Below the pieces are notes generated by a model. That model ran no database searches. It was not told where the DNA came from and was given only the letters and a program-made list of their open reading frames with translations. Positions 22,131-53,556 of a stretch of 53,854 bases of DNA are shown here, in pieces (position 1 is the stretch's first letter; each line of letters begins with the position of its first letter). Source of the stretch: Bacilli bacterium (GTDB taxonomy: Bacteria > Bacillota_I > Bacilli_A > ML615J-28 > CAG-313); assembly GCA_900770645.1 (NCBI GenBank), contig CAAGKY010000044.1, positions 1-53,854 of the forward strand, written 5' to 3'. The position numbers were made by a program, and so were the translations under genes.

Positions 22131-23453
22131 CTATTTTGCGTATGGATATACGTGAACGTCTTCAGTGATTTCACCAGCAACTAATAAGTTTTTGTTTAAT
22201 AATGCTTTTGCATACCAAGTAGAGAATCCTTGTTGTAAAGCACCATCTGGAGTACCTAATAATTGAGTAGGAACGATAGCCATATATGGAGCATAAACAC
22301 CAGCAGAACTCATCATATCAGAACCGTTTAATCCGAAGAAGAATGAACGACCTTTTAATCTTGGAGATACATAAACGTTCATACCATCGATTTCACCAAC
22401 TTTGTAAGGACCATTCATCTTAGCTACTTTAGCAGCATTGAATCCATTAACGAATTTTAAGATTGGTAATACGTCAGCAGCAATTACCATATAGTTAGGA
22501 TGGAATTTTTGAGTTCTCTTATAGATAATAGCTTTTGCTTCTTCGATAACTTCTAAGAATGCATTGTAGTGTTCAAATTTAGAAACACCAACTGGTAAAG
22601 TTTTAGACCATGTTAATTTATCTTCATGAGCTAAAGCACCTTCGTATAACATATCAACGATTTCAGTATCGATTTCATATGCTAATTCACCACAAGCTTG
22701 TTCAGCGATTTGTTTATCTAAAGAGAAACCATAATCAGTTTTAGCTTGGAATGCAGTAATTTGGTCATATTTAACAGCAATACGTCTTGGTTCAGCAACT
22801 AAAGCGATTCTTTCCATAACTGGTTTAATAGCAGGAATTTCTTCAGCAGGAACTTGTTCCATTTGGAATCTTTCAGCAACATAAGCAACTTTTTTACCCG
22901 CTTTTAATTCATTAGTGTATTCACCATCAATTTTATAAGTATAACGAACAACGTTATTACCTTCAACGTTAGTTAATCCACCTTCACGAGCAGGGAAAGT
23001 AGTAGCAACAGCACCATCTTCACCAGCAGCAACTTCTTCGATTAAGATTTGAGAAGTATAAGCAACACGGTTGTCATCCATTTGACCTAAACCGAATACG
23101 CTATTTAATTCTCTACCTTTCATACCATTCTTATCAGTAGCAGCTTCATATTTTAAGTAAGCAACAGAACCACTGTAAGAAGTCATTGGGTGAACGATAA
23201 CTAAATCATTAGCGATTAAGCTAGGAACAGCGATATTAGTTAAGTTTAAACAGAATTTTTTCCAATCACCTAAATCAGCACGGTTACCACCAGCAACCAT
23301 AGATTCAGTCATCCATCTGTTAGTATTATCTAATAATACAGCAGTAGTTAATTTTGTATTGTTTGATACAGCTTTTCCGTCAAAGTTTTTAGCAACATAA
23401 GCTTCAGCAACTTTTAATTGACGGCCATAAGTTTCTAATAAATTTTGTCTCAT
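22131..23453 (-). CDS. Major capsid protein (440 aa)
   Basis: Intact ORF with no TGA and 4 TGG. Strong RBS and its own terminator. Size and position after the protease/scaffold gene fit a capsid protein. The sequence resembles myovirus HK97-fold capsid proteins by eye. Confidence 0.75.
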   Translation of the reverse strand: MRQNLLETYGRQLKVAEAYVAKNFDGKAVSNNTKLTTAVLLDNTNRWMTESMVAGGNRADLGDWKKFCLNLTNIAVPSLIANDLVIVHPMTSYSGSVAYLKYEAATDKNGMKGRELNSVFGLGQMDDNRVAYTSQILIEEVAAGEDGAVATTFPAREGGLTNVEGNNVVRYTYKIDGEYTNELKAGKKVAYVAERFQMEQVPAEEIPAIKPVMERIALVAEPRRIAVKYDQITAFQAKTDYGFSLDKQIAEQACGELAYEIDTEIVDMLYEGALAHEDKLTWSKTLPVGVSKFEHYNAFLEVIEEAKAIIYKRTQKFHPNYMVIAADVLPILKFVNGFNAAKVAKMNGPYKVGEIDGMNVYVSPRLKGRSFFFGLNGSDMMSSAGVYAPYMAIVPTQLLGTPDGALQQGFSTWYAKALLNKNLLVAGEITEDVHVYPYAK

Positions 23454-23474
23454 TGTTTTTCTCCTTTGTTTTTT

Positions 23475-25352
23475 TTAAAACTTTTCATTTAGACCAGCTA
23501 ATTCATATAAAGAATCCCAGTCATAATCATCGTTTTTACGATTTTCTTTTTGTTCTTTAATAACAACTTTAGAGTTCTTATTAATAGAATAAGGTCTAGT
23601 ATAAGTAACATTTTCAGTTAGAATCTTGTCACAAACTTCGTTAATTTGTTCGAAAGATGTTTTATCTCCTAATCTACTAGAAATATCAGAAGGTCTAACT
23701 CCTAATTGTGACGCTCTAAATGAAATGTATTGTTCAAGCATTTTTGCACATTTAGCTTTATACGCTTTTGCAATCTTAACGCTTTCTGAAAGTTTCTTTT
23801 CATACTCACTAGTTGTGTTTGCTAATTTTTTATTTAGATCATCAACTTTTGTTTGTGCTACTTTCACTTGTTCAGTTAAAGTAACTGTTTTTTCTTTTTC
23901 TGCTTTAATACTTTCATTTAATTTTGAAGCATTTGCAGTCTTTAATGCGTTAATAGCATTATCTTTTTGAACTAATTTTTCGTTCAAATTCTTAATTTGT
24001 GCTTCAGCTACTCTTACTCTTGCTGCAATTTTGCTTGTTCTAGCAAATGCATCTTTATACTTATCAAGCTCTTCTGTCAATTCTTTAACTTTGGAATCTT
24101 CAACTGTTCTAGAACTCTTAAGATCTTTAAGTTCTTGTTCGAGTAAGTCTTTTTGACGAATCATGTCTTTTAAGCTTTCTAAAATTTCTTCATCTTCTTC
24201 TCCGTTATCTTCGGCAGGCTCAGGTTCATTAATTTCTTCTACTTCATCAGATTCACCAGCTTGAGCTTCTTCGTCCTCAAGATTTTCATCTTCAGATACT
24301 ATATTATCTTCTTCCTCATTTTCAGGAAGACTATAACCAATGTTTACAATTACTTTTCCTTCTTCAGAATTATCAAATTCTAAAGTTGTAATTTCGTATT
24401 CTTTATCTTCAATTACAATTGGTTTAAATTCTAAACTTAATTCACCTTCATATTCTTGTAATTGATCAATCATTGTGCTTACAGTATAAGCTTCTGTTTT
24501 TTCAATTTCTTCTTCAGGTTGTTCTTCAATAGGTTCTTCAGTTTCAGCTACTTCTTTATCTTCTACATCTTCGATTTCACTATCTTCATCTTCTAGATTT
24601 TCTGATTCGTCTTCTTCTTTTAAAGTAATTGCTGATTCTTGTTTAATATCGATTGAAGGAACAATTTCAACTTCTATAATTTCATCATCTTCAGTCATAT
24701 TTTCATCTAATGAAATTTCTAATTCTTCTAATGTATTTCTCATAATTTCTTTTTCTTCTTCTGGAGCGTTTTCAATAGATTCTCTTAACGCTTTCTTTAA
24801 TTTTTTATCTTTAACGTTCATTGATTCTGTCATATATTTAAGTCTAGCTGCTTTAACTGCTGGTAAAATAACAGCATCAAAACATTCGAACATATATGTA
24901 TCTGGATCAACAACTTCTTCTCCCATTTCTTCGATGAGATCACCTGATCCACGAGAACTAATTCCAATAGTAGTTCCATAATCACATAGAGTTTTTAAAA
25001 TTTTTCCAGATGGAGTATTTAAAATATCAAAGCAAGCAATTAATTGTCCATTTGCATTCTTAACTGGTTTTTCATTTAATGCAATTGCAATTTTTTCTGG
25101 ATCTACTTCTTCTCTATCAAGTGGATGTCCTAATTCTCCAAATAAGCATTTATTATTGATTTTTTCTAGGACAATTTCATCTTCGAAAACGTTGTTTCAA
25201 AGAGATTCGTTGTATTTTCTACCATTTCTAGTTGGAATCGTAAAATCGGCACATGGACCAACTAAGCGTCCTAAAATCTGTCTACTTTCCATTTCTTCTT
25301 TACTTAATCTTTTATAAGAAAAGGATTCATTTCTCTTTAAAGTTTCAAGCAT
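23475..25352 (-). CDS. Prohead protease fused to an acidic coiled-coil scaffold domain (625 aa)
   Basis: Track ORF 23475-24926 extends upstream in frame through one TGA (25199-25197) to ATG 25352-25350 (AAGGAGG upstream). N-terminal ...CLFGELGHPLDREE...GISSRGSGDL...FECFDAVILPAVKAA is prohead-protease-like (T4 gp21 type, by eye). The remainder is E/D-rich and then a K/E heptad-like coiled coil. Confidence 0.65.
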
Positions 25353-25442
25353 GATTGCTTTACCTCCTTATTATGAATAGTTTCTTCATATTTTTACTAT
25401 AATTATATTTTCATCGAAGTCGAACATAGCTCAACCAATTAA

Positions 25443-25456
25443 TCAATTAATTTAGC
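25443..25456 (-). promoter_or_regulatory. Conserved intergenic motif copy 5 (GCTAAATTAATTGA)
   Basis: Proximal of two tandem copies upstream of the protease-scaffold/MCP unit. Confidence 0.5.
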
Positions 25457-25530
25457 AGTATAAAAAAATATTTTTTTAAAAAATTTAATAATTTGATAAT
25501 TTTTTAAATTATTAAAATATTAAATAAAGA

Positions 25531-25544
25531 TCAAATAATTTAGC
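25531..25544 (-). promoter_or_regulatory. Conserved intergenic motif copy 6 (GCTAAATTATTTGA)
   Basis: Distal tandem copy, immediately after terminator 25549-25583. Confidence 0.45.
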
Positions 25545-25548
25545 AAAT

Positions 25549-25583
25549 AAAAAAACTATTTATATAAAATAAATAGTTTTTTT
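25549..25583 (-). terminator. Rho-independent terminator after 25598-26068
   Basis: Stem AAACTATTTAT/ATAAATAGTTT (25553-25563/25569-25579), loop ATAAA, flanked by A- and T-runs. Confidence 0.7.
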
Positions 25584-25597
25584 ATTATTTTAATTTA

Positions 25598-26068
25598 TTA
25601 TCTAAATTCACGTCTTCCAGCTAAACATTCTAAAACTAATAGATCTGTCTTTATTAGTTTCAATAAATTTAAACAGCTTGAAGAATCTTTAGTTGAATAA
25701 TATTCGTGTAATACTTTTAGTAATTCTTCTGCACGAATTTCTTTTAAGAATAAGTCTTTGTCTTTTTCTAGCTTATTACTATATAGATTAATTTGAACTA
25801 ATAAGCAAACTAAAGTTGTTATACATTGATCTTCATTCTCGATATCTTTTAATATATTTACATATAGAGGAGATTTTTTCTGATTGTGCTTTTTTCTAAG
25901 CATCTCATAAAAATTACCAGCTTCAATTCACTTATTTTTAACAATAAACTCTAAAACTTTTGTTGGAATATCTTTAGATATAAGTAACTCTTTCATATTA
26001 TTTCTAACATCTATTCCTGCATCTTCCATTTTTACCAAAATTGATAAGCAATCACTTTTTGTTAACAT
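25598..26068 (-). CDS. Hypothetical protein (156 aa)
   Basis: Track ORF 25598-25903 extended through TGA 25930-25928 to ATG 26068-26066 (AAAGGAAA upstream); TAA 25600-25598. Confidence 0.5.
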
Positions 26069-26094
26069 TGTTATATTTCCTTTCGTTTTAAAAA

Positions 26095-28038
26095 CTAATT
26101 ATTTTTAGTAAAGTCTTTATTTTCGTCTAGCTCTGTAGGTGAAGGTAGAAAATCACTTTCTTCTAGAAATTCGCTTTCATTAAACACTTCTTGATCTTCA
26201 GTAAGTCTAATTAATCCTGAAGTTTCTTCAATAGATTCCATAGCGATTTCAACATCTCCAGAATTTCCTAATTCTCCTAATTCTTCTGAGCTATCTTCTG
26301 TTTCGTCTGGTACACTATCTAATTCTTCGTTTTCAGTTTCTTCCTCTTCTTTTGCAGCAGCTTCTAGCGCATTAATTTCTTCTTGAATAATTTGAAGAAT
26401 TCCATCACCATAGTTAAGAGTACCAATTAGTTCTTTAAGAATTTCTAAGCGTCTAGCTTTGTCTTCGATATCACTAAATAGAGATTGCATATTACTAATT
26501 GCAGAAATTCTATTAGTTAAATCTGATCTATAATCGATTTCTTCTTGAGTAATAGGCGCTTTCATTTTTAATACGAAGTTATTTAGATAAGCTTTACATC
26601 CTTTGTCGATTAAGAATAAATTAATAGCATCAGTTAAAGCTTGAATAATCGCATTTTGAACTCTTTTTACACTTTTAGCAAATACGCTTGAGATAATCGC
26701 AAGTGATGTACCACCATTAAATCCAGCTCCATCTTCAGTATATCCTAAATAAGCTTTAGGGATACCAAATGCAGCGTAGAACTTAATAATTCATGCGTCT
26801 AAGTCTGCTAAGTTTTTTACATCGATGTCTCCACCAATAGCATTAATAGTTATTGCACCCTGACCATTATGAGTAGCTGTAAAAATATTATTTTCAATTG
26901 GTCCTGGGCTATTGTATTCAGACATAGCTTCACCAACATTTAATGCAGATTTTTGTTCAAATAGCTCTTTTACTCTTCTTAATGTTTGTTGGACTTGTGT
27001 TTTAGGCATATCACCTACTTCAACTTGAATATTTCTAACAATAGAAGATTTTGTAATTCTATTTAATAAGATTGAGTTTTCCAATAATGATTTTTCTCTT
27101 CAAATTTTATATGCATCAATTAGCATAGATTTACCACGTCTAACAGTATAAGCTTGTGAATTAGTATTATTTTTATAATCATCGTCAGTTACGAATAATT
27201 CAACTTTTTCTGGGAATCTTGTAAAATTATCTTCTAAGCAAGCATGAACAAAATCATCAGCTTGATAAATATTTACATCTGTAGACTTCATTCTAAAGTT
27301 TCCAATAGTATTGTTTGAACCAGTAGCACCAAAAGTAGAAGATAAGAAGTCTACTTTATTCTCTTCATTTGGAGTTTCAATATATCCATAAGTTCTTCCG
27401 AATTTTACTAGTTCATAAATTGTTCCTGGATCATTTATCATTTCTACGTAGTGACTATATTTATCACTAGTATTATGAATATTTAAATTAATAGCTTCAT
27501 CTAAAGGCTTATTTGTAGATTCATTTAACGTTGTTCTAGCAGCTAAAGAATTATTTATATTATCTTTCTTAAAGACTTTGTCTTCATAATCAGATTCTCT
27601 AAATAATCGTAAATAGACATCACCGTACTTAATTAGATTATAAACTCATCCATAAATATTTTTATCTGCGTTCATTACGTTTAATAAATAATTTACAAAT
27701 AGGCTTATTTTTGGGTCTTGTGATTCGCATCAAACAATATGACCTTGATCATTCATCTCTGTTGCTTCTTCTGCAATAATTTTTATTACAGAAGCAACAC
27801 TCGAATCAGCAGCCATATTATCTATTACTTGGTATACTTGTTCTCTAGAATTAGATAGAGATGTAAAACTTTCAATCGCACTTGTGTCTAATCCACCATT
27901 GATTCCACCTTCAATTATGTCATCAATTAGTGCTTTAGTTATATCTATATCTATCTTAGTCGTACTATCTAAAGTTGTAGGCTGTGCTTGTGAACCTACA
28001 AGTGGATTTTTAGTTTTTTTAGATTGAGTATTTTCCAT
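26095..28038 (-). CDS. Portal protein (647 aa)
   Basis: Joins track ORFs 27730-28038, 27100-27441, 26791-27084 and 26095-26565 (one frame, 4 TGA, no TAA/TAG; checked). ATG 28038-28036 after AAGGAG. Size, the acidic C-terminal tail and the position after TerL fit a portal. Confidence 0.75.
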
Positions 28039-28048
28039 ATAGTCTCCT

Positions 28049-30073
28049 TTATATTATTATAATACCATCAGTAAGATCTCGATAGTATTTTCATTCTTCT
28101 TGTTCTTTCTTCTTTTCAAACTCATTTGCTGAAGCTTGTTCAGCATAAATTTTAGTTAATTCTTCTTCGAAATTTATTATCAGTTGCTGTTTTTGATAGT
28201 TATCATTTGAAATTGAGTTTACAGATAGTGATGCGTCTAAGCTTTCTCCAAAGTTATACGCAAAATCTGCTGCAAAACTACTTGCTCTAAATGTTGCACC
28301 ACAAACAGCATCGAGAATATCTTTATGAAAGTTTGGCGTATGGTCAACTTTACCAGTATTGATATTTCTTTCTACATCTAAGAATTCGTCAAATAATCTG
28401 CTTGTCTTATACATCAAGAAACGTTTTTCATAGATTACATTTTTTAAGAATTGATAAGGTTTACAGATTCTATCTGAGTCAACTCTATCGACAGATACAA
28501 CTTCACAGTCAAAACCTTCGCTTGAAAGTTGTTGTCTTAAGTCATATGACTGAAATGTATCCGAAGTAATTGACTTAATATTAAATCCGACACTTTTTAG
28601 CCATCTAATAAATATTCTATTTTTTTCAAAAGATATTTGTCGTCCTTTTGGAGCTTTAATTGCAGCTGAAAAAGCCAATCTAAATGATAAGTCCTTAGCT
28701 TCATCTTCACCATTTGCACTAGGCTTCTTACCAGTTATTCATACTCCAGCAATACCCGTCATGTCACCTGAAATAGACATATCCAGATGGATAAATAACG
28801 GTAAAGCTTTTAATTCTTCTGGAATAACCGATAAATCAAAGAAATTAGAATATTGAAGTCTATCTTCTGGTCCATTACCAACTTCTAAAATTTCTTTTGT
28901 AAATGGATTTTTGATATTTTCATTAATAACTTCTTTGACTGCACTTGCTGACATATATTTATTTAATGAACTACTAGAAATACCAGCAAAGTCACAAAGT
29001 GCTCTTTCAATGTCTTCTATAAATTTTGATTTAAAATCGATTGGAACATCAATAACTTTATAGCCACGTTCTTTATAAGAATCTAAATTTTGATATTCAT
29101 TTTCTGGAATAATTATACTTTCTAAGAATTTATTTCCTAGACCGACTTTAAATAATTTATCAGAGTATGTTCCTTTTGGTTTTACTTCTCAAACAGGTTT
29201 ATCAATAACTAAAGTGTTATTTCCATCAGTTTGAGAGAGCATTTTTATATATTCTTCCATGAATGATTGTTCACTTCTTTTTGAAGAAGCTACAACGAGC
29301 ATAGTAGGATTAACTCCACCAAAAACGAAACGTGTCATCATACCACCTATTGCTGTATCAATCATATCTTTTGCTTTTTTCTTTTGTTTATCTATATCTT
29401 GATTTTTAATGAACGAAATTTCGTCGAAGAACGCATAATAGATAGGTTTACCAATTACATCATCAGCTTGTGAACCAATGATTATAGATAAAGGTTCAGG
29501 CGGATTTCAATAATCTTGATTATTACGTCTAGTCATTGTTCCACGACTCATAAATCAAGGAGAAGCTTGGATAGTTTTTTGGAATTTACTTACTGCGATT
29601 TCTTCTGCTAGAGCTAATTTAATATTCATAAAAGCAAAACAGATTTTTTCAGTAGGTTTTAATCTAAAATATTCTAATGGATTTTTTAAGCACATAACTC
29701 TATACATTAGGTATGCACCAACACATCCACAGGCAACTTCTGATTTACCAAGACCTCTGGCACCACTTTCTAATAAACAGTTATACGCGGTAGTTAGATT
29801 ATCTGGAAAAAGCTTTTTTAATTCACCTAATCAAAATGGATATAGTTTAATATTTCCAGCAGCATCTTTTCAAGCTTGACCTAGATAATGATCATTTGTA
29901 ATAAATGTCTCAATATCTACTGGTATCTCTCTATACTCTGCGTATTTTAAGTCTTCTAAGATGTCCGATTTACCTTCTTCTGCATACTGAGCTAGAATTT
30001 GTAGCGCAACTCTTCGTTCTTCTTCAGATAAATTATTAAGAGCTTCTAAATTTATTACATCGTTAGACATCAT
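28049..30073 (-). CDS. terL: Terminase large subunit (674 aa)
   Basis: Joins track ORFs 29870-30073, 28739-28954 and 28091-28678 plus the untracked 28955-29869 (7 TGA, no TAA/TAG; checked codon by codon). Walker A-like ARGLGKSE and acidic ...YYAFFDEISF. The last TGA (28093-28091) is followed by 13 codons to TAA 28051-28049. Confidence 0.8.
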
Positions 30074-30109
30074 CTACTCGTTTCCTTTCTTTTAATAATT
30101 TACTATTAT

Positions 30110-30118
30110 ATTATACAA
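30110..30118 (-). promoter_or_regulatory. TTGTATAAT element (-10-like) upstream of terL
   Basis: Minus strand ATTGTATAATATAATAG, 36 nt upstream of ATG 30073. The same element recurs at 49075-49083 and 50566-50574. Confidence 0.3.
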
Positions 30119-30130
30119 TATTTATAAAAA

Positions 30131-30949
30131 CTATTTGTTTTCATCACTTGAATCAGTAGAATCTGAAGTTTCTTTTTTATTTTTTTCAGCAACTGGATTT
30201 TTATTGCTTCCTTTTTTAATCTTACCTCTATCGCGTCCTCATTGATTTACGATATCGATAATATTTTTATCAGAGTCTAATTTAGTATCTTCTGGAACAA
30301 TATCTTCCTCTATTGCTTCTTCAGCTGTTACACCGTAGAGCTTTGGAAAAATAAATTTTAGAAATAATTTTCTCTTGTTCTCTGCCATGTAGTTAATATA
30401 ATTATTAATTACTGATGCAACTTTCATAGCTCAGTCTAAATTATTTAGCACTAATAAAACGTGTTTACATCCTTTTCCAGTAGAATTAGCCATTCCGGTT
30501 TTTCCAGGACCTGGGTCTTTGTCTGAACCATCTACAGAATCTCCACTAATAATTAGCGCATGAGCATATCGATATTTAAAGTCGTCGCATGAGCATTTTA
30601 CTTTTATTTGGTTCATATTAAATACTTTTGTTACAGCTTGAACAATTGTTCGATATTCGAGTTTATTATTATTACTCTTAATATTTTTAGCAATCTCAGA
30701 TACGACTCCATCTACTTTTAATGTTACGTCATATTCAGAAGTTTCTCCAGTTACTGGAATATTTATTGTAAGTAAATCAGCCTTGAAAAAATCATCCATA
30801 TTAATATTATTATAATTTTTTACTTGTGTAGCAATTTTAGAGAATTTTTTACGCTCAAATCTATTCTTACCACGTATATTATGTTTATAAATATCTACAG
30901 ATTTTGATTTACTAACTAGTTGATTTCTTGTATCTTCTTTTAATTGCAT
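30131..30949 (-). CDS. SWIM zinc-finger protein (272 aa)
   Basis: Joins track ORFs 30431-30949 and 30239-30427 and extends to TAG 30133-30131 (2 TGA). CSCDDFKYRYAHAL...GKGCKHVL is a CxC...CxH SWIM pattern. Has a basic, Ser-rich tail. Confidence 0.55.
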
Positions 30950-30975
30950 AATACTACCTCCTAGTTTTTAACTAT

Positions 30976-30989
30976 CTGTATAATTTAGC
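30976..30989 (-). promoter_or_regulatory. Conserved intergenic motif copy 7 (GCTAAATTATACAG)
   Basis: Lies between terminator 31007-31036 and the GGAGG/ATG of the SWIM gene. Confidence 0.45.
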
Positions 30990-31006
30990 AAATAAATTTA
31001 ATAAAA

Positions 31007-31036
31007 ATAAAAAAGAGACTAATTAAAGTCTCTTTT
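31007..31036 (-). terminator. Rho-independent terminator after the nucleotidyltransferase gene
   Basis: Stem AAAGAGACT/AGTCTCTTT (31012-31020/31027-31035), loop AATTAA. Overlaps the TAA 31037-31035. Confidence 0.75.
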
Positions 31037-43940: not shown

Positions 43941-43942
43941 GC

Positions 43943-44283: not shown

Positions 44284-44502
44284 TTATCTGATTTTCTTTA
44301 GTATTTCAAGCGGATCTTCTCCAGTTAACTGGTATGCGCATCGGCTTAATTCTTTAGAATATTGTAAAAATGATCAATCTAACTTATGAGCAATACAATG
44401 AGCCATTATATCGATGTTATCAAACTTATTTTCGAATAAGTTTTTTATGAACAATAAGCGGGTCTCAAATGTTCTTAATTCTTCTGGAAATTTATCTGTC
44501 AT
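44284..44502 (-). CDS. Hypothetical small protein (72 aa)
   Basis: Not in the track (one TGA). ATG 44502-44500, TAA 44286-44284. Overlaps the end of 44492-44893 by 11 nt. Confidence 0.4.
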
Positions 44503-44893
44503 ATTTTGAAATTTGACTCCTATCAATATTATATTGCCCGATAAGCGGAATAATTTTTAAATACATTTTAGTGATTTCGTCTTGCTGTTTTAACGTAACA
44601 TCTTTAATTTTACTTTGAGCTTCAGCAAAGCTATTTCCTTCAATGTTTATATATTGATATAATAATAATGCATTTGTTAATATAGCGACTTCTTTGTCTG
44701 TTGGAATTTTAATTGTTCTTCCAGCAAAATACGTTAATAATCTAGTTAGATTACTTCCATCTAAAAGATAGCAAATTTCACTCAATGTAGCATACTCTGG
44801 AATGTCTTGCATCTTATACATTAAAAATAACATTAATGAATAGATGTCTGATAGTTGTAAGTTATTTAAGTTCTTTCTAATATTTGTCTTCAT
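44492..44893 (-). CDS. Hypothetical protein, possible Mor-like transcription activator (133 aa)
   Basis: Intact ORF. ATG after AGGAGAA. LTYFAGRTIKIPTDKEV resembles the fGG..iYIP motif of Mor/C-type activators (weak, by eye). Confidence 0.3.
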   Translation of the reverse strand: MKTNIRKNLNNLQLSDIYSLMLFLMYKMQDIPEYATLSEICYLLDGSNLTRLLTYFAGRTIKIPTDKEVAILTNALLLYQYINIEGNSFAEAQSKIKDVTLKQQDEITKMYLKIIPLIGQYNIDRSQISKYDR

Positions 44894-45704
44894 TGTCGTT
44901 ATATTCTCCTGATGGATTAGAAATTAAGTAATCTAGTATTTTATCTTCTATTTGAAGCTCACTATAAAAGTTTATTATTTGATGTTTTAAGCTAGTTCCT
45001 AATTCTGTGATAAATACTCTAATATAATTATTCATTGATTTTGGCAATTTTCAAATTTTGACTGTGACTGGGTCTGCATTTATCCCATTTTTTTCTTTTA
45101 AATTCTGTAGACAGTTTAAAAGTATAGAAATCTTAATTTTCTTATATTCTGGCGAATCATTTCTAAATGGTGATTTTTTCAAAACACTCTCTAAAGTTTT
45201 ATTAAACTCGTAAAATAGCTCAATAACTGATTCTTTGAATTTTTCAGTATTTCTTTGAGATTCTCAAACTTGATCTCGTAAATTCTGTCTATAGGTAAAC
45301 TTATTAAATTCTTTCGCAGCTTCTGATGCTCTTGTCTTAATATTATATTGTGAATTTAAATATTCTAATTTCATCGGATAAAGTAATGCTTTTGTATAAT
45401 TAAGAATTGATTTAATAGGTTTGATTGTTTTTCCCTTAATTACTTTTCCTTCATTCATATAGCTCTTTTTTAGAGCAAAAAATAATCTATTTGCACTTTG
45501 AAGAGCATAACCATCATAGTCACTAAAATTGTCAAACATTCTTTTTTTAATAGCTAATGCTTTAACTAATAAATAAATATAATTATAGATTAAATTTGGA
45601 ACTTCGTCTTCTGGATCAGCATCTACAATCTCAGCAGAATGCGCATCAATATATATGCACAAGTCTGTGTATTTTAAATTATCCGGCTTACGTCACATTA
45701 TCAT
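44877..45704 (-). CDS. Hypothetical protein, possible phage late sigma factor (gp55-like) (275 aa)
   Basis: Track ORF 45264-45662 extended both ways through 3 TGA. ATG 45704-45702 after AAGGAGAA; TAG 44879-44877. LIYNYIYLLVKALAIKKRMFDNFSDYDGYALQSANRLFFALKK looks like a sigma region-2-type helix pair. Adjacent to the gp46/gp47-like genes, as gene 55 is in T4. Confidence 0.3.
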
Positions 45705-45718: not shown

Positions 45719-47590
45719 TTATTGTTTAGCAATTAAGCTAATTCCAGTATCATCCTTAACAATATTTATTTCTGAATCTATTGAAATATCTAGACTTTCT
45801 GCATGATGCGAAATAATAAATACAGACTCAACATCTTTTAATTTATCTGAGATTAATAAGAATAATCTCGCTGTTGCAACTTTATCTAAGTTGTCAGTAA
45901 TTTCGTCTAATACTAAAATATTAGAACTATAACTAAAATATGTTTGCAGCATGTCTCTAATTGCAAATTGTGTAATAATATCAACTCTTTGTCTTTCTCC
46001 ACCAGAAAGTGAGTCAATAATTTTACCACAATAAGTAATGTCTAATGCATTACCATCTAAATAAATTTCTAATTCGTCATTGCCAAATACTGTTTTTGAA
46101 TACTCTTTAGCTTTTTTATTTATATATTCTACTATATTATACAATAAAAATCCACGAAAATCTCTTTTTACAAGAGTGTCGATTTTCTTAACAATCGCAA
46201 GTCTTTCAGATAAAACTAATAAACTTTTATCATTCATTTCTAATTGATCTGATAGCTTGCTTTTTTCTGCAGTATTAGCTTCAAGCTCTTGTAAATTATT
46301 TTTATAAATGTTGTCCCAAGTATCTTTATCGTAAATTAATTTGTCTTTTTCTCTAGTTTCTTTTACTATTAATTGAGATAAATTTGTGTGAGATAATTTT
46401 AATTCTTGATTTGCTGATCTAGTTGAAGTTATTTCAGAATTTAGTTGTTTAAGTTTTTCTGCGAATTCTTCTGAAATTTGTGCTTCATAAATAGATTTAT
46501 TAGAATTAGCTTTTTCTAATTCAGTACTAAGCTCAGATAATTGTTTATTTAATTCTTCTAATTTTTTCTCTTGCTCAAAAGTATCAGGCTTAGAAATATT
46601 TGGAAGCTTTTGACCGCATGTTGGACAAGTATCTGTGATATTTTTTAGCTTAATAATTTCATTACGCACAAAAGAAATTTCATATTCTATTTTAGTTTTT
46701 TCACTAATAATAGGATCAACTTTTTTATGGTATGCTTCTAGTAAGCATTTATTTTTTTCAGCTTTTTGGTTGTTGACGTCTAATAACTGATTATTTAATT
46801 GAGTTAAAAGATCTTCATACTTAACCATGTCTTTTTCTGCAGCTGCAAGTTGTTCAGAATAAGTATTAATTCTATTTGATATATCTTCAATTTCTTGTTC
46901 AAAATTTGGTTTTACTGCAGAATTAATTTTTTGCTCTAATGCAGAAATCGCAGAGATAATAGAATTAATTTTAGTCTTGATAATTAATGAAGAATCTTCT
47001 ATAGTTCGTTTTTGACCATTTAGAACAGCTAATCTTTCATTAATTCTATTTTTAATATCTTCAATCATAAAGTCTGATTTAGTTAATTTTTCTAATAGTT
47101 CTTTTCTTCCACTAGGACTAAATGATGAAAACTTATTTGGCATTCCTTGACCGATAATTATTGTAGATGAAATTAAGTTTTTATTTAAATCTGGTAAACA
47201 ATCACATAAGATTTTTTCAGATTCTCTAATTCCTTTTCCTGAAATATTTTCACCATTTTTAAATATCTTTAAATCAGATTTAGGTTTATGATATCTAATA
47301 ATCTTATATTCGTCTTTGTCTGCAAAAAAGTCTAGTTCAACATAACATTCATTGCTATCAACTAATACGTTCTTCAAATTAGTTGATAGTCCATTAATTG
47401 TTTCTCCAGTTAAAGCATAACAAATAGCTGTCCAAATAGTTGATTTACCACATCCATTAGACAATGCTCCATCTTTAATATAATTATTTTTTCCAGTTAC
47501 TGCACAAAAGCCTTTATCACATAAATAGACTTCAGCTTCAGCATAGCTGTTAAAATTAACTAATTTTACTTTTTTAAATTTTAATTTCAT
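45719..47590 (-). CDS. sbcC: SbcC/Rad50-like recombination ATPase (T4 gp46-like, 623 aa)
   Basis: Intact ORF. Walker A NGCGKST, zinc hook CPTCGQ within a long coiled coil, signature LSGGERQR, Walker B ILVLDEITDNLD. No TGA, 2 TGG. Confidence 0.85.
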   Translation of the reverse strand: MKLKFKKVKLVNFNSYAEAEVYLCDKGFCAVTGKNNYIKDGALSNGCGKSTIWTAICYALTGETINGLSTNLKNVLVDSNECYVELDFFADKDEYKIIRYHKPKSDLKIFKNGENISGKGIRESEKILCDCLPDLNKNLISSTIIIGQGMPNKFSSFSPSGRKELLEKLTKSDFMIEDIKNRINERLAVLNGQKRTIEDSSLIIKTKINSIISAISALEQKINSAVKPNFEQEIEDISNRINTYSEQLAAAEKDMVKYEDLLTQLNNQLLDVNNQKAEKNKCLLEAYHKKVDPIISEKTKIEYEISFVRNEIIKLKNITDTCPTCGQKLPNISKPDTFEQEKKLEELNKQLSELSTELEKANSNKSIYEAQISEEFAEKLKQLNSEITSTRSANQELKLSHTNLSQLIVKETREKDKLIYDKDTWDNIYKNNLQELEANTAEKSKLSDQLEMNDKSLLVLSERLAIVKKIDTLVKRDFRGFLLYNIVEYINKKAKEYSKTVFGNDELEIYLDGNALDITYCGKIIDSLSGGERQRVDIITQFAIRDMLQTYFSYSSNILVLDEITDNLDKVATARLFLLISDKLKDVESVFIISHHAESLDISIDSEINIVKDDTGISLIAKQ

Positions 47591-47987
47591 CAGAACTCAA
47601 CCACCCTTCAATATTATCTTTGACTATTAGCCAAAAATTATTTATATGTTTACTCATTTCAGCACGATATTCTTCATCAACCTCAGCTTTAGTTTTTGTC
47701 TTGTCTTTTATCTCAACCATATTTTCAGAAATATTATAATAATTATAAATGCAATTATAGTATGCATCATATTCTTGAACTGCTAAACATAAATAGTATA
47801 TTTTTTGATTTTGTGCAGGATCATACTCATTTTCTGTTAAGATATAGTAGTCACGCATAAATCTAATATACGTGATAAAATAGTCTAAGTTATTATTTAA
47901 ATTTTTAAAATTAAACTTATGACATTTTTTTAATTCTTTATTATAAAACTTGTATAATTCTTTAAACTGTTTTTCGAATGAACTCAT
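47574..47987 (-). CDS. Hypothetical protein (137 aa)
   Basis: Intact ORF between the SbcD and SbcC genes. ATG after GGAGAT. 2 TGG, no TGA. Confidence 0.55.
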   Translation of the reverse strand: MSSFEKQFKELYKFYNKELKKCHKFNFKNLNNNLDYFITYIRFMRDYYILTENEYDPAQNQKIYYLCLAVQEYDAYYNCIYNYYNISENMVEIKDKTKTKAEVDEEYRAEMSKHINNFWLIVKDNIEGWLSSDEIKI

Positions 47988-47996
47988 GTATATCTC

Positions 47997-49034
47997 CTAC
48001 TTACAGATTTCAGCTAATTCTGAATCTAGAAGATCGCTTCCAACGATTTTTTCTTTGCAGAATTGAATTAATCTTTGAATATGATCTGTTCCTTGTAATT
48101 CTTCTATTGCGATATCGTCAGAATCAGCTTCAAAATTTTGCTCAAGCACAACTCTTGATTCTATAATCTTACTACCAAGTTCTTGCAAAAAGTCTTTTAT
48201 TTCGAACAACATTTTTTTATTTGTCTTAATAGATAATACTGCATTTTGTTTGACGTTATTGATTTGCTCTAAATTCTCTGCTGTTTTTATTTCTAACTTA
48301 TAGAAATTTAATGAATATGGATTTTCGAAAAAATCAATCTTTAATGTGTCAGTGTCTAAGATCCAAACTCCATACTTATATCTACTAGAATCGTTTGTAA
48401 AATTGTGACCAGAAAATGAACCAACATTTAGAATTTTATCTGAAACCCATTCAGAGTTATGTAAGTGACCATTAAGAAATAGATCACAATTTTCTTCAAT
48501 TTCTTTAATTGAAAATCCAAGCGTACTTTCAAAACCACCATAGTTGATTCCAGCAATATCATTATGAGAAATAATTATATGCTTAGTACAAGAATTATCT
48601 TTAAATAAATAGCTTTTTAATTCTTGCTTGTCAGTCTCTAATACATATGGTAAAAAATGAATTTGTGTGTCACCAAAACCTTGACTGAAATTTGCTTCAG
48701 AAATAATGTGTCGATTAGGTGATTCAATTGCTTTTATTGAGCTATATCGTAAATCTGCAACACTAGATTCATGATTTCCGCAAAGAAAGTAGCATGGTAG
48801 ATTATTCCATGAGATCTTTTGTAGAGCTGTAATCTCTTCGTCATTTAATGTACTTCTATCCATAAAGTCACCAGCACAAATCATTTCTTCACAATTTTCT
48901 TTTGTTGCTAATTCATTTAACCAATTCATACTATTAATTAAAAAGTCTAATCTAGTACTAAATTTTTGTCCTCTTGATCTAACAATTGATGAATTTGTAC
49001 TCCAATGACAGTCTGAAAAAACTAATATTTTCAT
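47997..49034 (-). CDS. sbcD: SbcD/Mre11-like nuclease (T4 gp47-like, 345 aa)
   Basis: Intact ORF. Calcineurin-like motifs FSDCHW, GDFMDR, GNHE, SHND, GHLH. 5 TGG, no TGA. Confidence 0.85.
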   Translation of the reverse strand: MKILVFSDCHWSTNSSIVRSRGQKFSTRLDFLINSMNWLNELATKENCEEMICAGDFMDRSTLNDEEITALQKISWNNLPCYFLCGNHESSVADLRYSSIKAIESPNRHIISEANFSQGFGDTQIHFLPYVLETDKQELKSYLFKDNSCTKHIIISHNDIAGINYGGFESTLGFSIKEIEENCDLFLNGHLHNSEWVSDKILNVGSFSGHNFTNDSSRYKYGVWILDTDTLKIDFFENPYSLNFYKLEIKTAENLEQINNVKQNAVLSIKTNKKMLFEIKDFLQELGSKIIESRVVLEQNFEADSDDIAIEELQGTDHIQRLIQFCKEKIVGSDLLDSELAEICK

Positions 49035-49074
49035 ATCTTCATACCTCCAATTTATATATTAATTTATATACTAT

Positions 49075-49083
49075 ATTATACAA
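49075..49083 (-). promoter_or_regulatory. TTGTATAAT element (-10-like) upstream of sbcD
   Basis: Minus strand TTATTGTATAATATAGTATA, 40 nt upstream of ATG 49034 and directly after terminator 49094-49125. Confidence 0.3.
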
Positions 49084-49093
49084 TAAATAAATT

Positions 49094-49125
49094 AAAAAGT
49101 AGCTTATTTTAACAAGCTACTTTTA
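49094..49125 (-). terminator. Rho-independent terminator after 49129-49704
   Basis: Stem AGTAGCTT/AAGCTACT (49098-49105/49114-49121), loop ATTTTAAC, with flanking A5/T4 runs. Confidence 0.7.
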
Positions 49126-49128
49126 AAA

Positions 49129-49704
49129 TTAATTCAAATAATCTACTGCTAATTCTGCCATCGTAACTAATGTTACTAATTTATAAGTTTTTCTAATATT
49201 AAAATTTTCAATATTAGAATTAGTACTAGAGTATAAAATAGCTTCAACTAATTCATCATTATTTAGATCAATAAATTTTTTAGCTATCATATATGAACTA
49301 AAACTAATATCACCAAAAATAGGTCTAACATCTTTTGTTCGGTAAGATAATATAGATTCCCATTGATTAGTTACTTCATTTTTTACATTTTTTAAATATG
49401 GCTCATACAATTCTGCTCTATATAAATCCTTGAATAGCGCAACTTTTAAAATATCTTGTAATGAATATCTATCTGGACAATATACATCACATAATTTTTT
49501 TAATTCTTCAAATAATCTAATAGTGTGGTCGCATAAACTTCCCTTATAAGAGTATGTTTGATAATTATTATATGGCTTATTAAAATAATCAACTCTTTCA
49601 CTAATAAGATATTTAGTTAGTGCGGTTAAGTCAATATTTAGATTAACTAATAAAGAAATAAATTTACTCTTATTCTCTAAAATTTGGTCTTCAGTTAACA
49701 TCAT
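49129..49704 (-). CDS. Hypothetical protein, weak HD-superfamily resemblance (191 aa)
   Basis: Intact ORF. ATGATG after AAGGAGG. GSLCDHTIRL and VALFKDLYRAE loosely recall the H...HD motifs, with Lys in place of the second His. Confidence 0.3.
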   Translation of the reverse strand: MMLTEDQILENKSKFISLLVNLNIDLTALTKYLISERVDYFNKPYNNYQTYSYKGSLCDHTIRLFEELKKLCDVYCPDRYSLQDILKVALFKDLYRAELYEPYLKNVKNEVTNQWESILSYRTKDVRPIFGDISFSSYMIAKKFIDLNNDELVEAILYSSTNSNIENFNIRKTYKLVTLVTMAELAVDYLN

Positions 49705-49726
49705 TTTTCCTCCTTATTTTTTTTTA

Positions 49727-49918
49727 TTATTTATTAGTTTTATCCCAAACTTTACTAATAACTTCAGATAATGCAGCTAATAACTTAATATTTTCGTCAG
49801 ATAATTCAGTAATCTCTTCTTCTTCAAATGCTTTATTGATGTCTCCAATTATTTTTCCAGCGCGAGTTAAGCTTGAAACTTCTTCTTCTGATAAATTTGC
49901 AATCTTTCTAATTATCAT
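49727..49918 (-). CDS. Hypothetical small protein (63 aa)
   Basis: Intact ORF. ATG after AAGGAGAA. Confidence 0.45.
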   Translation of the reverse strand: MIIRKIANLSEEEVSSLTRAGKIIGDINKAFEEEEITELSDENIKLLAALSEVISKVWDKTNK

Positions 49919-49933
49919 AATATTCTCCTTTTT

Positions 49934-50542
49934 TTATTTTAAATGTAAGCCAAAAAATTCTTCTAATTCAGTTTGGTTCATATCAAAAAATCTTTCAGGT
50001 AAGCCATATGTTTTTTCAAGTTCTCTAATCGATTTACAGAAATCAAACACGTTTATTTCCTGACTTCCAATTTGTCGAATTAGCGCATTACCTCCAAACT
50101 CATAATTAATTAAATATTTGGCATTATGCGCATGACTAGTGTCAAAACTATTGTGCTTAACGTCATACGTTTCATTATTCTTATCTTTAAAATCTGCGAT
50201 TGGTTTACCTTCTCCAGAATGAAAATATTTACTATTTTCGTCTATTCATTGTAGAGATAAGTCTTTTCCACGAGTAGAATTTTTGATTTCAGTCTCTTCT
50301 AAGAAAGCTCTTCCAAAAAGCTTAAAAATTCTAACTAATCAATTACTATGATCGTCTACTCCGGTCGAATAGTATTCATATGTTGGTATAGATGCTTCAA
50401 TTTTTTTGAGTTCATCTAAATAATTTTTTCAATCAACTCAATTATTCTTCAATATTTCTTCTCTATTTTTATTAAAATATTCAACTGTTAAAAATATTTC
50501 TTTTCAAGAGATTTTATTATTTTCCAAAACTATTTTCTCCAT
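49934..50542 (-). CDS. Hypothetical protein (202 aa)
   Basis: Invisible in the track because of 6 in-frame TGA with no TGG. ATG 50542-50540, TAA 49936-49934, both ends in one frame. No convincing RBS; the TTGTATTAT element lies only 23 nt upstream. Confidence 0.45.
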
Positions 50543-50565
50543 TTTACTATAGAATCTTATATAAT

Positions 50566-50574
50566 ATAATACAA
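50566..50574 (-). promoter_or_regulatory. TTGTATTAT element (-10-like)
   Basis: Directly after terminator 50584-50615 and upstream of 49934-50542. Confidence 0.3.
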
Positions 50575-50583
50575 TAAGTTATT

Positions 50584-50615
50584 AAAAAATAGCACCTAAG
50601 AGGTGCTATTTTTTA
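50584..50615 (-). terminator. Rho-independent terminator after the bS21 gene
   Basis: GC-containing stem ATAGCACCT/AGGTGCTAT (50589-50597/50601-50609), loop AAG, flanked by A6/T6. Overlaps the TAA 50615-50613. Confidence 0.85.
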
Positions 50616-50831
50616 ATATTGTCTTCTGTTTTTGTTCTTTTTACGAAGTCTTTTTTGAGCTTCTTCTGATTTCTCACGTCTTTTTACTGACTTAGATTTA
50701 AAATATTCACGTTTTTTGCATTCTTGAATAATGTTGTCATTAAAAACTTGTTTCTTAAATCGTCTAAGAGCTACGTCTAATGCTTCTCTTTCTCCAGTAT
50801 TTTTATCTACATATAAAACAACTTTAGCCAT
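50613..50831 (-). CDS. rpsU: Ribosomal protein bS21 homologue (72 aa)
   Basis: Intact ORF after AAGGAGGAGG. ...[52 protein letters not shown] aligns by eye with bacterial S21 (E. coli ...[44 protein letters not shown]). Confidence 0.85.
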   Translation of the reverse strand: [72 protein letters not shown]

Positions 50832-51762
50832 TATTTTTCACCTCCTCCTTTATTTTGTTATGATAATCCTCTAAAATTTGCGAATGTTTATCTAATCCTT
50901 CTCAATGATATTCTACTTTTCCAAGATCTGATTTGTTTCTAGTATCTCGTTGCCACTTACAAAAATATGGACATAAATATTTTCCTTCTTTTTTAGCATC
51001 AGGATTTGTTGCGCAGAATTCGCACCAGTTACAAAGTGGACTTGGAGAAGGTTCAAAGTTTTGTTGAGATATTCCATCAAAAATTTTTTCTATTTTATCT
51101 GTACCACGCTTCATATAGCCCTTAGTTCCAGCTGATTGAGTTAAATCACATAACGGTAATTGATACTCACAAGAAATTTGTTCAGGCGAACAATTAAATA
51201 TTTGTTGAACAGCTAGATTATAGATTACGAACTGCAATGGTGTAGTTAACTTATCTTTTTCTAATGGGACAGCGAAAGTTTTTATATCTTGAATTAAATA
51301 TTTATTCTCATTTTTGTCATAAAAGACTCTGTCTATAAATCCATTAAAAAGTTTATTTCAAAATTCGAAATTAAATTTTTGTTCAACTCCAACTAATTCT
51401 AGATTTGGGTTATCTCGCATAAACTGTTCTAGTTTATAGATTCCTTCTTCTAAATAGTAATAAGTTTTATTTTCATATGTTCTATCAGATTTGTCTAATT
51501 CATAAAAATCTTTAGAGTATTTTCTCTGTATCTCACTCAATTTTACGATAATATTATTCTTTAATTTTGTATAGTCGATTGGCTCATTATTAGTAATATT
51601 TTTTGCAATAGTCTCCTCTGTTTCGTGAATTAATGTTCCAAACTCAGTTGCAATAGAGCTATTGAAAATATAATTTCCATCGACATATTTTAATTTATAT
51701 TTGAATGGGCATTGTATATACGTGTCTAATTTAGAATACGAAAATTTTTCAATATTAGCCAT
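50824..51762 (-). CDS. PD-(D/E)XK nuclease, Cas4/RecB-like with Cys cluster (312 aa)
   Basis: Joins track ORFs 51358-51762 and 50902-51237 via TGA 51360-51358, then reads through TGA 50904-50902 for 25 more codons to TAA 50826-50824. N-terminal ...YIQCPFKYKL plus C-terminal CNWCEFC...CPYFC form the four-Cys pattern of Cas4-type nucleases. Confidence 0.6.
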
Positions 51763-51850
51763 TATCTATCACCTCCAAAATGTATTTTGGAACCCATAGG
51801 AGCTCCAGGATGAACTTTCCATACTTAGCTATATAGATTTATTTATTAGA

Positions 51851-52759
51851 TTAAAAATTCAATAGAGAGCAAATTATGAACTCATTTAATTCTTTCTTAT
51901 CAAGGTCTAGTTTTCCTAGTTTTAGTTGTTTATCTAAACTAGTTAAAAATTTTAAAGAATTTATAACAGTTTCTTCAGAAATGTCTCGATAATAATACTT
52001 AATAGCATTAACTTGCTTAGGAGTCATTTTTAATTGCTCTACAGTTAATCCACTATTAAAGTTTATGAACAATATTTTTTTATAATTACTAATTAGTAGT
52101 CCAACTAATGAAAAAGGATCAATATCAACGGTGTTGATATGCTGTAGATAATCTGATATTACTAGTTTGTTTCGTTTTAAAATCGCTTCACTAAGACTAA
52201 AAGAAGAAATTTTGTATAAATCAGTATTTTCGTCATATTTTAACTCATTTAAAACTTCTCGTTGTTTATTCCCAGAATATAATCTAATCTTGTCTAGCTC
52301 ATTTTCAATTCGATAAATATCTCCACCAGTTACTTCATATAACCAATTAATTTCTTCATCTTCTAGATTCTTACATACTACTTTCATAAAATCTTTAATT
52401 TGCCAATCTACTAGTTTTGGAATTTTTACAACATACTCAGACAATTGACTTTCAATTTTCTTATCTACTTTATTGCAAATAATGATATTATTTTTAAACT
52501 GAGAATAGTCATTATAAAAAAGATCAAAGACTTCAGTTTTTAAAATATACAAAGTATTTGAAAAATCAAAAACTAATGAGAGTGCTGAATTATCTTGATT
52601 AATTAATTCTTCAACATACTTTTCTTGACAATGTCTGTTTTGGCAGATTTTAGCGATATATTGATTAGCTATAAAAAAATTGTCTTCGCAAACTAGAACT
52701 AAAAAATCATCAGATAATGAATTATTTAAAATATTTTCCTTTAATTTTTTAATATCCAT
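51851..52759 (-). CDS. Clamp-loader small subunit / delta-like (gp62-like position, 302 aa)
   Basis: Intact ORF. TAATG overlap with the AAA+ clamp-loader gene. Function inferred from position next to the gp44-like gene. 2 TGG, no TGA. Confidence 0.45.
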   Translation of the reverse strand: MDIKKLKENILNNSLSDDFLVLVCEDNFFIANQYIAKICQNRHCQEKYVEELINQDNSALSLVFDFSNTLYILKTEVFDLFYNDYSQFKNNIIICNKVDKKIESQLSEYVVKIPKLVDWQIKDFMKVVCKNLEDEEINWLYEVTGGDIYRIENELDKIRLYSGNKQREVLNELKYDENTDLYKISSFSLSEAILKRNKLVISDYLQHINTVDIDPFSLVGLLISNYKKILFINFNSGLTVEQLKMTPKQVNAIKYYYRDISEETVINSLKFLTSLDKQLKLGKLDLDKKELNEFIICSLLNF

Positions 52760-53556
52760 TATCTAATTGCCTCCTTTAATTCTAGTAAAAAATTAATCAT
52801 AAAATTCTCTTTATTTAAAGACTTAATTTGTAAATCTTTAATATAATTAGATGTAAATAAATAAATTTTTAGTGCTAACTCTGATTGGTCAAATAAATAT
52901 TTTTCAAATGCACAATGAAGCAGCATATTAAAAAACATTTTAAAATCATACTTATCATAATCTTCTTTATAATTAATCTTAGCAGAAATAGATGTAGTAT
53001 TTGCAATAGATGCGTAGGTCAATTTATTAACAATATTTGTGCATAATGAATATAATTCATCAAGTCTATTGGTGTCCAAATCTATAATTGCGCCTGGAGT
53101 TTTTGCAACAGCATAAACTAAATCCGTAATTGGATAATTTGTTTGCCATTCTAGTTCTTGTAATTGCTCCTTAGTATATGGTTCTAATCTATATTTTATA
53201 CATCTATTTAAAATAGTATCTAATATTCCAATTTCAGATTCAGCTATTAAAGTGATATACACATTTAAACTTGGTTCCTCAATTAGTTTTAAAAATTGAT
53301 TTTGCTGTTTTTCAGTAAACTCATTTACGTCAATTAAATAAATTTTTTTACTAATTGATTGTTGGTACTCAATTATTTTTTCTGAGTCTATTTTTTCAGA
53401 TACGTAAACAACTTCTAAATCTAATCTATCTGCTAGATTTTTAATAAGTGTCTTTCTACCACTTCCTGTTGGTCCTAAAAATAGAAGACTTTTAGGTAAA
53501 GTATCTAATGAATAATTGTTTAGTTTTTCAATTAGTTTAGTTTGTCCAATTAACAT
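52759..53556 (-). CDS. AAA+ clamp-loader subunit (gp44 / DnaX-HolB-like, 265 aa)
   Basis: Intact ORF. Walker A GPTGSGRKT, Walker B-like IYLIDVNEF, sensor-1 region ITLIAES, then ILNRC (SRC-type motif). Confidence 0.7.
   Translation of the reverse strand: MLIGQTKLIEKLNNYSLDTLPKSLLFLGPTGSGRKTLIKNLADRLDLEVVYVSEKIDSEKIIEYQQSISKKIYLIDVNEFTEKQQNQFLKLIEEPSLNVYITLIAESEIGILDTILNRCIKYRLEPYTKEQLQELEWQTNYPITDLVYAVAKTPGAIIDLDTNRLDELYSLCTNIVNKLTYASIANTTSISAKINYKEDYDKYDFKMFFNMLLHCAFEKYLFDQSELALKIYLFTSNYIKDLQIKSLNKENFMINFLLELKEAIR

Follow-up and report, generated by a model that had tools for sequence, protein, structure and literature searches.

The 53,854-bp stretch of DNA analysed here (contig CAAGKY010000044.1, which we refer to in its entirety as the window; 29% GC) is probably part of a large contractile-tailed phage that uses two genetic codes. 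TGA encodes tryptophan (code 4) in this phage, and its genes fall into two discrete classes, one in which TGA and TGG stand at a neutral equilibrium and one from which TGA is excluded, a division that is conserved across relatives. We think it likely that the sequence belongs to a phage with TGA→Trp recoding, that its host is a standard-code member of the Bacillota, and that the code is switched in the course of infection. An earlier, sequence-only reading of this DNA had likened it to the published model of stop-codon-recoded phages, in which some genes are kept readable in the standard code, and our results fit that model. Dual coding itself is already known; the parts worth following up are the contrast between equilibrium and zero and a conserved exception, the gene for the major capsid protein (MCP).

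Two classes of tryptophan codon usage

Every plausible gene of the window lies on the minus strand, and open reading frames (ORFs) bounded only by TAA or TAG tile it, a tiling that requires TGA to be a sense codon. GGAG-type Shine-Dalgarno sites accompany 46 of 52 genes, against a background of 7%. When the window was compared by tblastn with about 50 related viral contigs, the positions opposite its TGA codons held tryptophan 540 times, another TGA 90 times, tyrosine, phenylalanine or leucine 111 times and glycine 36 times. All 36 glycines trace to a single TGA, codon 47 of the gene at 25598-26068 (minus strand), where every one of the 36 aligned relatives has glycine. This codon is the sole TGA of the window that faces neither tryptophan nor an aromatic residue, which suggests a GGA→TGA mutation (Gly→Trp) or an error in sequencing. 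Code 25, in which TGA encodes glycine and whose hosts are Absconditabacteria and Gracilibacteria, was ruled out because glycine is the partner at one codon only.

Exact in-frame counts, given throughout as TGA:TGG per gene, confirm the bimodal tryptophan codon usage that the sequence-only reading had tallied by eye. The window holds 114 TGA and 43 TGG codons in frame, and the heterogeneity among genes (chi-square-like statistic 84.2, 43 degrees of freedom) was not matched in any of 200,000 label permutations (p<5e-6), a test in which genes are left ungrouped. Five genes with at least two tryptophan codons use TGG alone (permutation p=1.2e-4). Nearly all of the tallies stood; TerL is 7:1 rather than 7:0, 49934-50542 is 5:0 rather than 6:0, and a TGG-only gene at 49727-49918 (0:1) had been overlooked. 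The count of 0:2 for SbcC holds if translation starts at the ATG at 47590, a longer ORF with a TTG start containing one extra TGA.

A further 9.7 kb of the same phage comes from a 67-kb contig (ENA ERZ27229657:k119_24880) that overlaps window positions 14337-53854, with 100% identity over the 11 kb checked; each of the two overhangs the other, so that at least 81 kb of phage genome can be joined. A mixture model fitted to the combined set of 53 Trp-containing genes places 73.5% of them in a class with p(TGA)=0.846 and the rest in a class with p(TGA)=0.00. Six of the 16 genes called TGA-free hold a single tryptophan codon, each with a posterior of about 30% for the TGA-using class, which might suggest a sampling artefact of small per-gene counts and post hoc grouping. 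We nevertheless consider such an artefact extremely improbable, given that the permutation result involves no grouping, that the likelihood-ratio statistic for two classes (45.7) was exceeded in none of 300 parametric bootstraps and that the pattern is replicated independently in sequence outside the window.

The level that TGA reaches is itself informative. In the window and the added 9.7 kb, TGA-using genes count 123:20, or 86% TGA, and in the same genes the preference for A over G at the two-fold pairs of Lys, Glu, Gln, Leu (TTR) and Arg (AGR) is 0.88. The two values are effectively equal, and TGA in this class is a neutral synonym at mutational equilibrium. The 16 TGA-free genes hold 0 TGA and 36 TGG, an outcome with a chance of about 2e-31 under the bias seen elsewhere; the genes were grouped post hoc for this figure, yet its margin is very large. 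At the other two-fold pairs their A-ending fraction is 0.86, and the GC content of their third codon positions (GC3) is 0.166, versus 0.157 in TGA-using genes.

This equality of AT bias and GC3 argues against a foreign origin of the TGA-free genes, which the sequence-only reading had offered as an alternative in the form of a mosaic. They would then be recent imports from standard-code relatives, in which TGA has yet to accumulate. Such relatives exist, and one of them (L277; contigs are designated by L numbers) supplies the closest MCP found (79%), the MCP gene of the window having a GC content of 0.347, somewhat above the window mean of 0.29. However, since the TGA-free genes share the A-over-G bias and GC3 of the rest, their other synonymous sites have equilibrated and tryptophan alone has not. 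No gene has a stronger A bias than the MCP gene (0.975 at other two-fold codons), which nevertheless uses TGG at 4 of 4 positions. Close relatives, at 78-93% amino-acid identity, lack TGA in the same genes, and about 20 separate recoded relatives lack it in MCP. Its identity to relatives (about 72%) reveals no outlier donor, and the ratio of MCP to portal identity for L277 is like that of other relatives. On these grounds of equal codon bias and unexceptional identity a recent transfer of MCP was rejected, and for the TGA-free genes as a whole we regard recent import as highly unlikely.

TGA codons are evenly distributed along genes, with no sign of gating at the 5' end. The base following a tryptophan codon is C after 25% of TGG and 5.7% of TGA codons, against a background of 11% (chi-square p=0.0016, window and L055 1-9987). 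Such a difference might arise from an influence of context on G→A mutation or from avoidance of TGA followed by C.

The early block and a proposed change of code

The right part of the window is the tail of a block of replication genes that can be read in the standard code (Table 1). Its per-gene pattern is repeated in close relatives (L066-L069), and the block runs on upstream of the window (L055, L068, L074, L075). In the same phage, upstream of the right end of the window, genes for an AAA clamp loader, dCMP deaminase and RecA (0:2 each) use TGG only, as does the gene for the C-terminal portion of PolA, which is split (0:3). TGA-rich genes are interspersed among them: a homing endonuclease of the GIY-YIG type counts 4:1, a DUF7487 gene 3:0 and each of two small genes 2:0. 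Close relatives are syntenic, with identities of 78-88% for SbcD, 93% for PolA and 90-98% for DnaB. Further upstream they encode ThyX, nucleoside deoxyribosyltransferases, an HD hydrolase, a permease, dUTPase, DnaB, primase and PolA-exo, and GyrB and GyrA are divergently transcribed in this region. Within the upstream module L075 counts 0:41, L068 (positions 1669-11209) 0:31 and L074 5:53, four of the five TGA codons of the last lying within a DUF7487 insert; minus this insert, the early block of the relatives holds 1 TGA to 129 TGG. DUF7487 genes in the module are gained or lost between close relatives. In a relative on the 237-kb IMG/VR contig L076, early genes count 1:36 and the converging late genes 19:6. 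The replication and nucleotide-metabolism module thus delineated in the longer contig of the same phage and in close relatives is essentially TGA-free over at least 20 kb. Class membership is kept gene by gene, since in four close relatives the genes that are TGA-free here count 3:78 and those that use TGA here 40:15 (Fisher p=2e-18).

With "early" and "late" assigned from gene function and order, the split is much nearer to early/late than the window alone shows. The sequence-only reading had judged that it was not a clean early/late one, a view that does not survive the upstream sequence. The module there is nearly all TGA-free and several exceptions are homing endonucleases or insertions, an observation that Borges et al. 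also made on mobile endonucleases of Agate phages; MCP is the real exception.

Two features of the family-A DNA polymerase in this region may be recorded. It is split into two genes several kb apart (L055 818-2104; L068 4962-6722 and 10001-11209; L069 6112-8163; L074 18198-20249), and in some close relatives an intein with a LAGLIDADG domain is present in its C-terminal part.

We propose a model in which the first-needed genes, those for nucleotide metabolism, helicase/primase, DNA polymerase, clamp and clamp loader, RecA, SbcCD and gyrase, would be translated by unmodified host machinery, with selection purging every TGG→TGA change in them despite strong AT pressure. Later in infection TGA would be decoded as tryptophan, the agent of the switch being perhaps a suppressor tRNA, or a loss of release factor 2 (RF2) activity together with near-cognate reading by tRNA-Trp. 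In genes expressed only after the switch TGA would be a neutral synonym, carried by drift to the frequency that mutation bias dictates (about 86%). The homing endonucleases and some accessory genes of the early block, because they are TGA-coded, would stay silent until the switch.

If this model is right, the dual coding is unusually clean, TGA being free of cost in most late genes and lethal or costly in a defined set, and the TGA-free set would be a sequence-only read-out of the genes needed before, or independently of, the code switch. It also bears on annotation: neither table 11 nor table 4 alone fits the genome, and table 11 fragments about 70% of its genes.

TGA→Trp stop-codon-recoded phages were reportedly described by Ivanova et al. 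in 2014. Borges et al. (bioRxiv 10.1101/2021.08.26.457843; later Nat Microbiol 2022) reported TGA-recoded Jade and Agate phages of Firmicutes, which combine standard-code replication genes with recoded structural and lysis genes, are low in GC, have an intron endonuclease that is recoded and are closely related to standard-code phages (10.1101/2021.08.26.457843). The present phage fits this kind when likened by described features, as distinct from placement in a TerL tree. It shares TGA=Trp in structural genes, standard-code replication machinery, low GC, standard-code relatives within its clade, a recoded homing endonuclease in the early region and relatives with contigs of 200-237 kb; no lysis gene was identified among the window genes. 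A common origin in gut or rumen is only suggested, by the metagenome-assembled genome (MAG) of one relative, from water-deer caecum. The phage differs from Jade and Agate in that no suppressor tRNA, release factor 1 (RF1) or tryptophanyl-tRNA synthetase (TrpRS) was seen in the visible part of its genome, and in its strictly and conservedly TGA-free MCP. Among these published genomes a suppressor tRNA was detected in only 35% of the TGA-recoded ones (Borges et al., 10.1101/2021.08.26.457843). The TAG→Gln crAss-like and Lak phages show the same dual coding, early standard and late recoded, and the same in-infection switch has been modelled for them, but they involve another stop codon and amino acid and have Bacteroidota hosts.

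In phages whose hosts themselves use code 4, TGA usage is uniform. In phiMFV1, MAV1 and P1, three Mycoplasma phages of 25-29% GC, the fraction of TGA is 0.87, 0.77 and 0.95, respectively; they resemble the phage studied here in GC content and in a TGA level (about 77-95% of tryptophan codons) that matches AT bias. However, they show no per-gene heterogeneity (p=0.77-0.89) and no TGA-free gene with at least two tryptophan codons, and they carry TGA in polymerase and replication genes, whereas this phage has a zero-TGA class. The sequence-only reading had pointed to such phages as the relevant control, and the per-gene variance seen here is absent from all three. The family to which our phage belongs includes many standard-code members. 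In-frame TGA is absent in at least 15 of them near MCP and in most near the clamp loader, and a standard-code member on a 175-kb contig in a Lachnospiraceae MAG counts 0:44. The best GenBank phage match by TerL is Bacillus phage vB_BceM-HSE3 (36% identity), and the nearest cultured relatives infect Bacillus and Listeria. The high frequency of GGAG-type Shine-Dalgarno sites likewise counts as indirect evidence for a standard-code Bacillota. The host most likely reads TGA as a stop codon; it is probably a member of the Bacillota and possibly of the Lachnospiraceae.

The alternative is that the host itself is a Mollicutes-like organism using code 4, and that the split reflects codon-usage selection, TGG being preferred in highly or early-expressed genes through a better-reading tRNA-Trp(CCA). 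Full mutational equilibrium of TGA in most genes is what phages of code-4 hosts show, the proportion of TGA-bearing genes (72%) lies at the top of the range of Borges et al. for phages of standard-code hosts, and no suppressor tRNA has come to light. Yet preference of this kind does not describe an exclusion that is absolute (0 of 36 here, 1 of 130 in the upstream block of relatives), it leaves the highly expressed sheath and tube genes with TGA only, and it sits poorly with the uniformity of the Mycoplasma phages, with the standard code of equally distant relatives and with nearest cultured relatives on Bacillus and Listeria. Mollicutes phages known so far are small, and a wall-less host would, to our knowledge, be without precedent for a large contractile-tailed phage. 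We therefore consider a code-4 host unlikely and prefer the switch during infection.

Searches for the agent of that switch, which the sequence-only reading had proposed, yielded no tRNA(UCA), RF1 or TrpRS in the window, the 9.7-kb extension or any close relative, the visible sequence being about 81 kb of a genome that may reach about 200 kb. No tRNA of any kind was found in the same sequences. ARAGORN was run with default and relaxed settings, introns allowed, on 1.18 Mb; the candidates of the relaxed run were false positives, a "tRNA(tca)" in L002 and L041 lacking the T-loop consensus and having a 3-bp D-stem. Rfam gave no family for the window at gathering threshold or at E≤1, and an IMG/VR pattern scan with CTTCAAA…GGTTCGATTCC returned unrelated phages, with none of this family among the matches listed. 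A regular-expression search over 2.7 Mb found one tRNA only, in the distant family member L151 (IMGVR_UViG_3300028591_000247; clamp loader 47% identical), where in-frame TGA also aligns with tryptophan. This tRNA(UCA), at 12075-12173, is 99 nt long with a long variable arm and G73, scores 46 bits against the Rfam tRNA model, which passes the threshold, and lies within an array of nine tRNAs that also holds a normal tRNA-Trp(CCA). Tryptophan would be its expected cargo, but a type-II shape is unusual for such a tRNA and makes its charging identity uncertain.

The same family has members that are TAG-recoded, L150 (IMGVR_UViG_3300028797_000104), L148, L139 and L134. L150 has 51 in-frame TAG codons within replication-gene alignments, and L139, which has five, also encodes a tRNA(CUA). 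A single family has thus recoded both of these stop codons.

Several observations weigh against a code switch as we picture it, the lack of tRNA(UCA), RF1 and TrpRS in the visible sequence being one. A leaky stop context is not enriched, TGA followed by C being depleted instead. The split by function is imperfect, since topoisomerase (1:1), the PD-(D/E)XK nuclease (2:2) and an AAA ATPase (1:0) carry TGA, and some early genes hold TGA in more distant recoded relatives (SbcD is 3:1 in L057, for example). The evidence on the host is indirect, and the binning of two relatives with Lachnospiraceae MAGs is weak evidence, as binning of phage contigs generally is. Finally, we infer the timing of expression, the host code and the agent of the switch. 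A scan for sigma-70 promoters gave fewer matches than in shuffled sequence and is for that reason uninformative on early versus late promoters.

The capsid exception

MCP is the sole clearly TGA-free gene within the late TGA-using region, the other structural genes (sheath, tube, portal, TerL and adaptor) carrying the recoded codon. The exception extends well beyond this phage. IMG/VR contains 52 loci that encode an MCP 55-75% identical to it, with in-frame TGA in the flanking genes of 19 and clearly none in 15. In the 19 recoded loci MCP counts 0:63 and the adjacent head protease/scaffold gene 1:39, while TerL counts 50:80, portal 23:76 and the head-tail adaptor 24:37. Another relative, L278, which is deeply recoded and was binned with Waltera intestinalis, has one TGA in MCP (1:4) and counts 30:9 elsewhere. 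Over 20 TGA-recoded relatives, MCP is 1:67 and its neighbouring genes 166:299 (Fisher p=7e-11, which is no true probability because the lineages are related), and over the recoded relatives the head protease is 2:40. In less deeply recoded relatives the sheath (2:12) and tube (1:3) are still mostly TGG. These counts hint that TGA spreads gene by gene and may reach the capsid gene last.

Why should MCP remain free of TGA? The explanation we lean towards is that TGA decoding is never fully efficient, a cost that would be largest for the most abundant virion protein; capsid synthesis that begins before the switch is a less likely reason. Sheath (4:0) and tube (2:0) are also abundant and use TGA only in this phage, which tells against the argument from abundance. 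More tentatively, the exclusion of TGA from MCP, and from the head protease/scaffold gene of relatives, may mean that the switch is incomplete, with RF2 still competing and a cost that scales with copy number, or that the shell proteins form a separate tier made before the switch. Either reading of MCP would, if true, give a first quantitative handle on the efficiency of recoding during infection, and would predict a gradient of TGA avoidance, MCP > scaffold > sheath/tube > rest, that erodes as a lineage recodes more deeply. The comparison of weakly with deeply recoded relatives hints at such an eroding gradient. If general, the capsid exception bears on the completeness of code switches.

The capsid proteins detected in TAG-recoded crAss-like phages came exclusively from code-15 predictions (PMC9523058). 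We saw no capsid gene kept free of the recoded codon described in the literature searched, an absence that is no proof of novelty. No record in the contig index matched the MCP protein exactly.

The remaining genes of the window

Features are listed in Table 1. Relatives were found in IMG/VR by an alignment-based query, a single-sequence query with SbcD having returned none.

Table 1. Features of the window and of related contigs, with in-frame TGA:TGG counts
Feature	Position	Strand	TGA:TGG	Remarks
Late tail/baseplate/neck module, read in code 4	410..22003	-	66:11	Trp-containing genes; Pfam and PHROG
1653-aa tail protein	410-5371	-	15:3	
Tube	13494-14108	-	2:0	
Sheath	14126-15781	-	4:0	
Head-tail adaptor	21254-22003	-	5:0	
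Strong terminator-like hairpin and T-run directly 3' of MCP gene	22085..22110	-		11-bp stem, 4 G-C pairs, then TTTGTTTTTT
MCP gene	22131..23453	-	0:4	phrog_138 major head protein, E=3.8e-25; tblastn to annotated MCPs
Head-assembly, packaging and unassigned genes, read in code 4	23475..38395	-	34:5	Sum
Head protease	23475-25352	-	1:1	phrog_207
Portal	26095-28038	-	4:0	PF07230
TerL	28049-30073	-	7:1	tblastn
AAA ATPase	37109-38395	-	1:0	
TGA-free gene amid TGA-using genes	38415..39437	-	0:5	L067 orthologue 1:4
Short genes and topoisomerase between two TGA-free stretches	39528..45704	-		Few Trp codons, mostly TGA
Topoisomerase	39528-41348	-	1:1	
Peptide deformylase	41538..42263	-	0:1	PF01327, E=4e-17
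Genes at 41332, 42723 and 44284	within 39528..45704	-	1:0 each	
Gene	44877-45704	-	3:0	Orthologues 3:0 in both L066 and L067
Tail of standard-code-readable early block	45719..53556	-		Pfam and codon counts
SbcC	45719-47590	-	0:2	From ATG at 47590
TGA-free gene	47574-47987	-	0:2	
SbcD	47997-49034	-	0:5	
HD-like gene	49129-49704	-	0:1	
Small TGG-only gene	49727-49918	-	0:1	
Gene of unassigned function	49934-50527 (also given as 49934-50542)	-	5:0	TGA-using interruption
Ribosomal protein bS21	50613-50831	-		PF01165; no Trp codon, within TGA-free block
PD-(D/E)XK nuclease	50824-51762	-	2:2	TGA-using interruption
Clamp-loader subunit	51851-52759	-	0:2	
Clamp-loader subunit	52759-53556	-	0:1	
GIY-YIG homing endonuclease	L055 3352-4479		4:1	
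GIY-YIG gene between gyrB and gyrA	L076 12007-12762		8:0	
DUF7487 gene	L055 6867-7709		3:0	
DUF7487 gene	L074 15163-16776		4:2	

The TGA-free gene at 38415-39437 gave no match in Pfam, PHROGs or a PDB sequence search, and its two-domain AlphaFold 2 (AF2) model (pLDDT 85.6) had no Foldseek match in PDB or BFVD; its protein family has 178 homologues in our representative library. The class of the peptide deformylase gene is uncertain, its posterior for the TGA-using class being 0.30 and its orthologues counting 1:0 in L066 and 0:1 in L067. Peptide deformylase and bS21 are both translation-related phage genes, and a strong hairpin terminator at 50580-50618 lies 3' of bS21, just ahead of the all-TGA gene at 49934-50527. 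Among the late genes, 16988-18526 (minus strand) encodes a Listeria-Bacteroides repeat domain (Flg_new, PF09479), a weak hint on the host cell surface. The protein encoded at 35807-37090 (minus strand) has an HExxH motif (HELLH) near its N-terminus and a Gly/Gln-rich stretch of about 170 residues made up of GQ(S/Q)G repeats, which match tail-fibre PHROGs.

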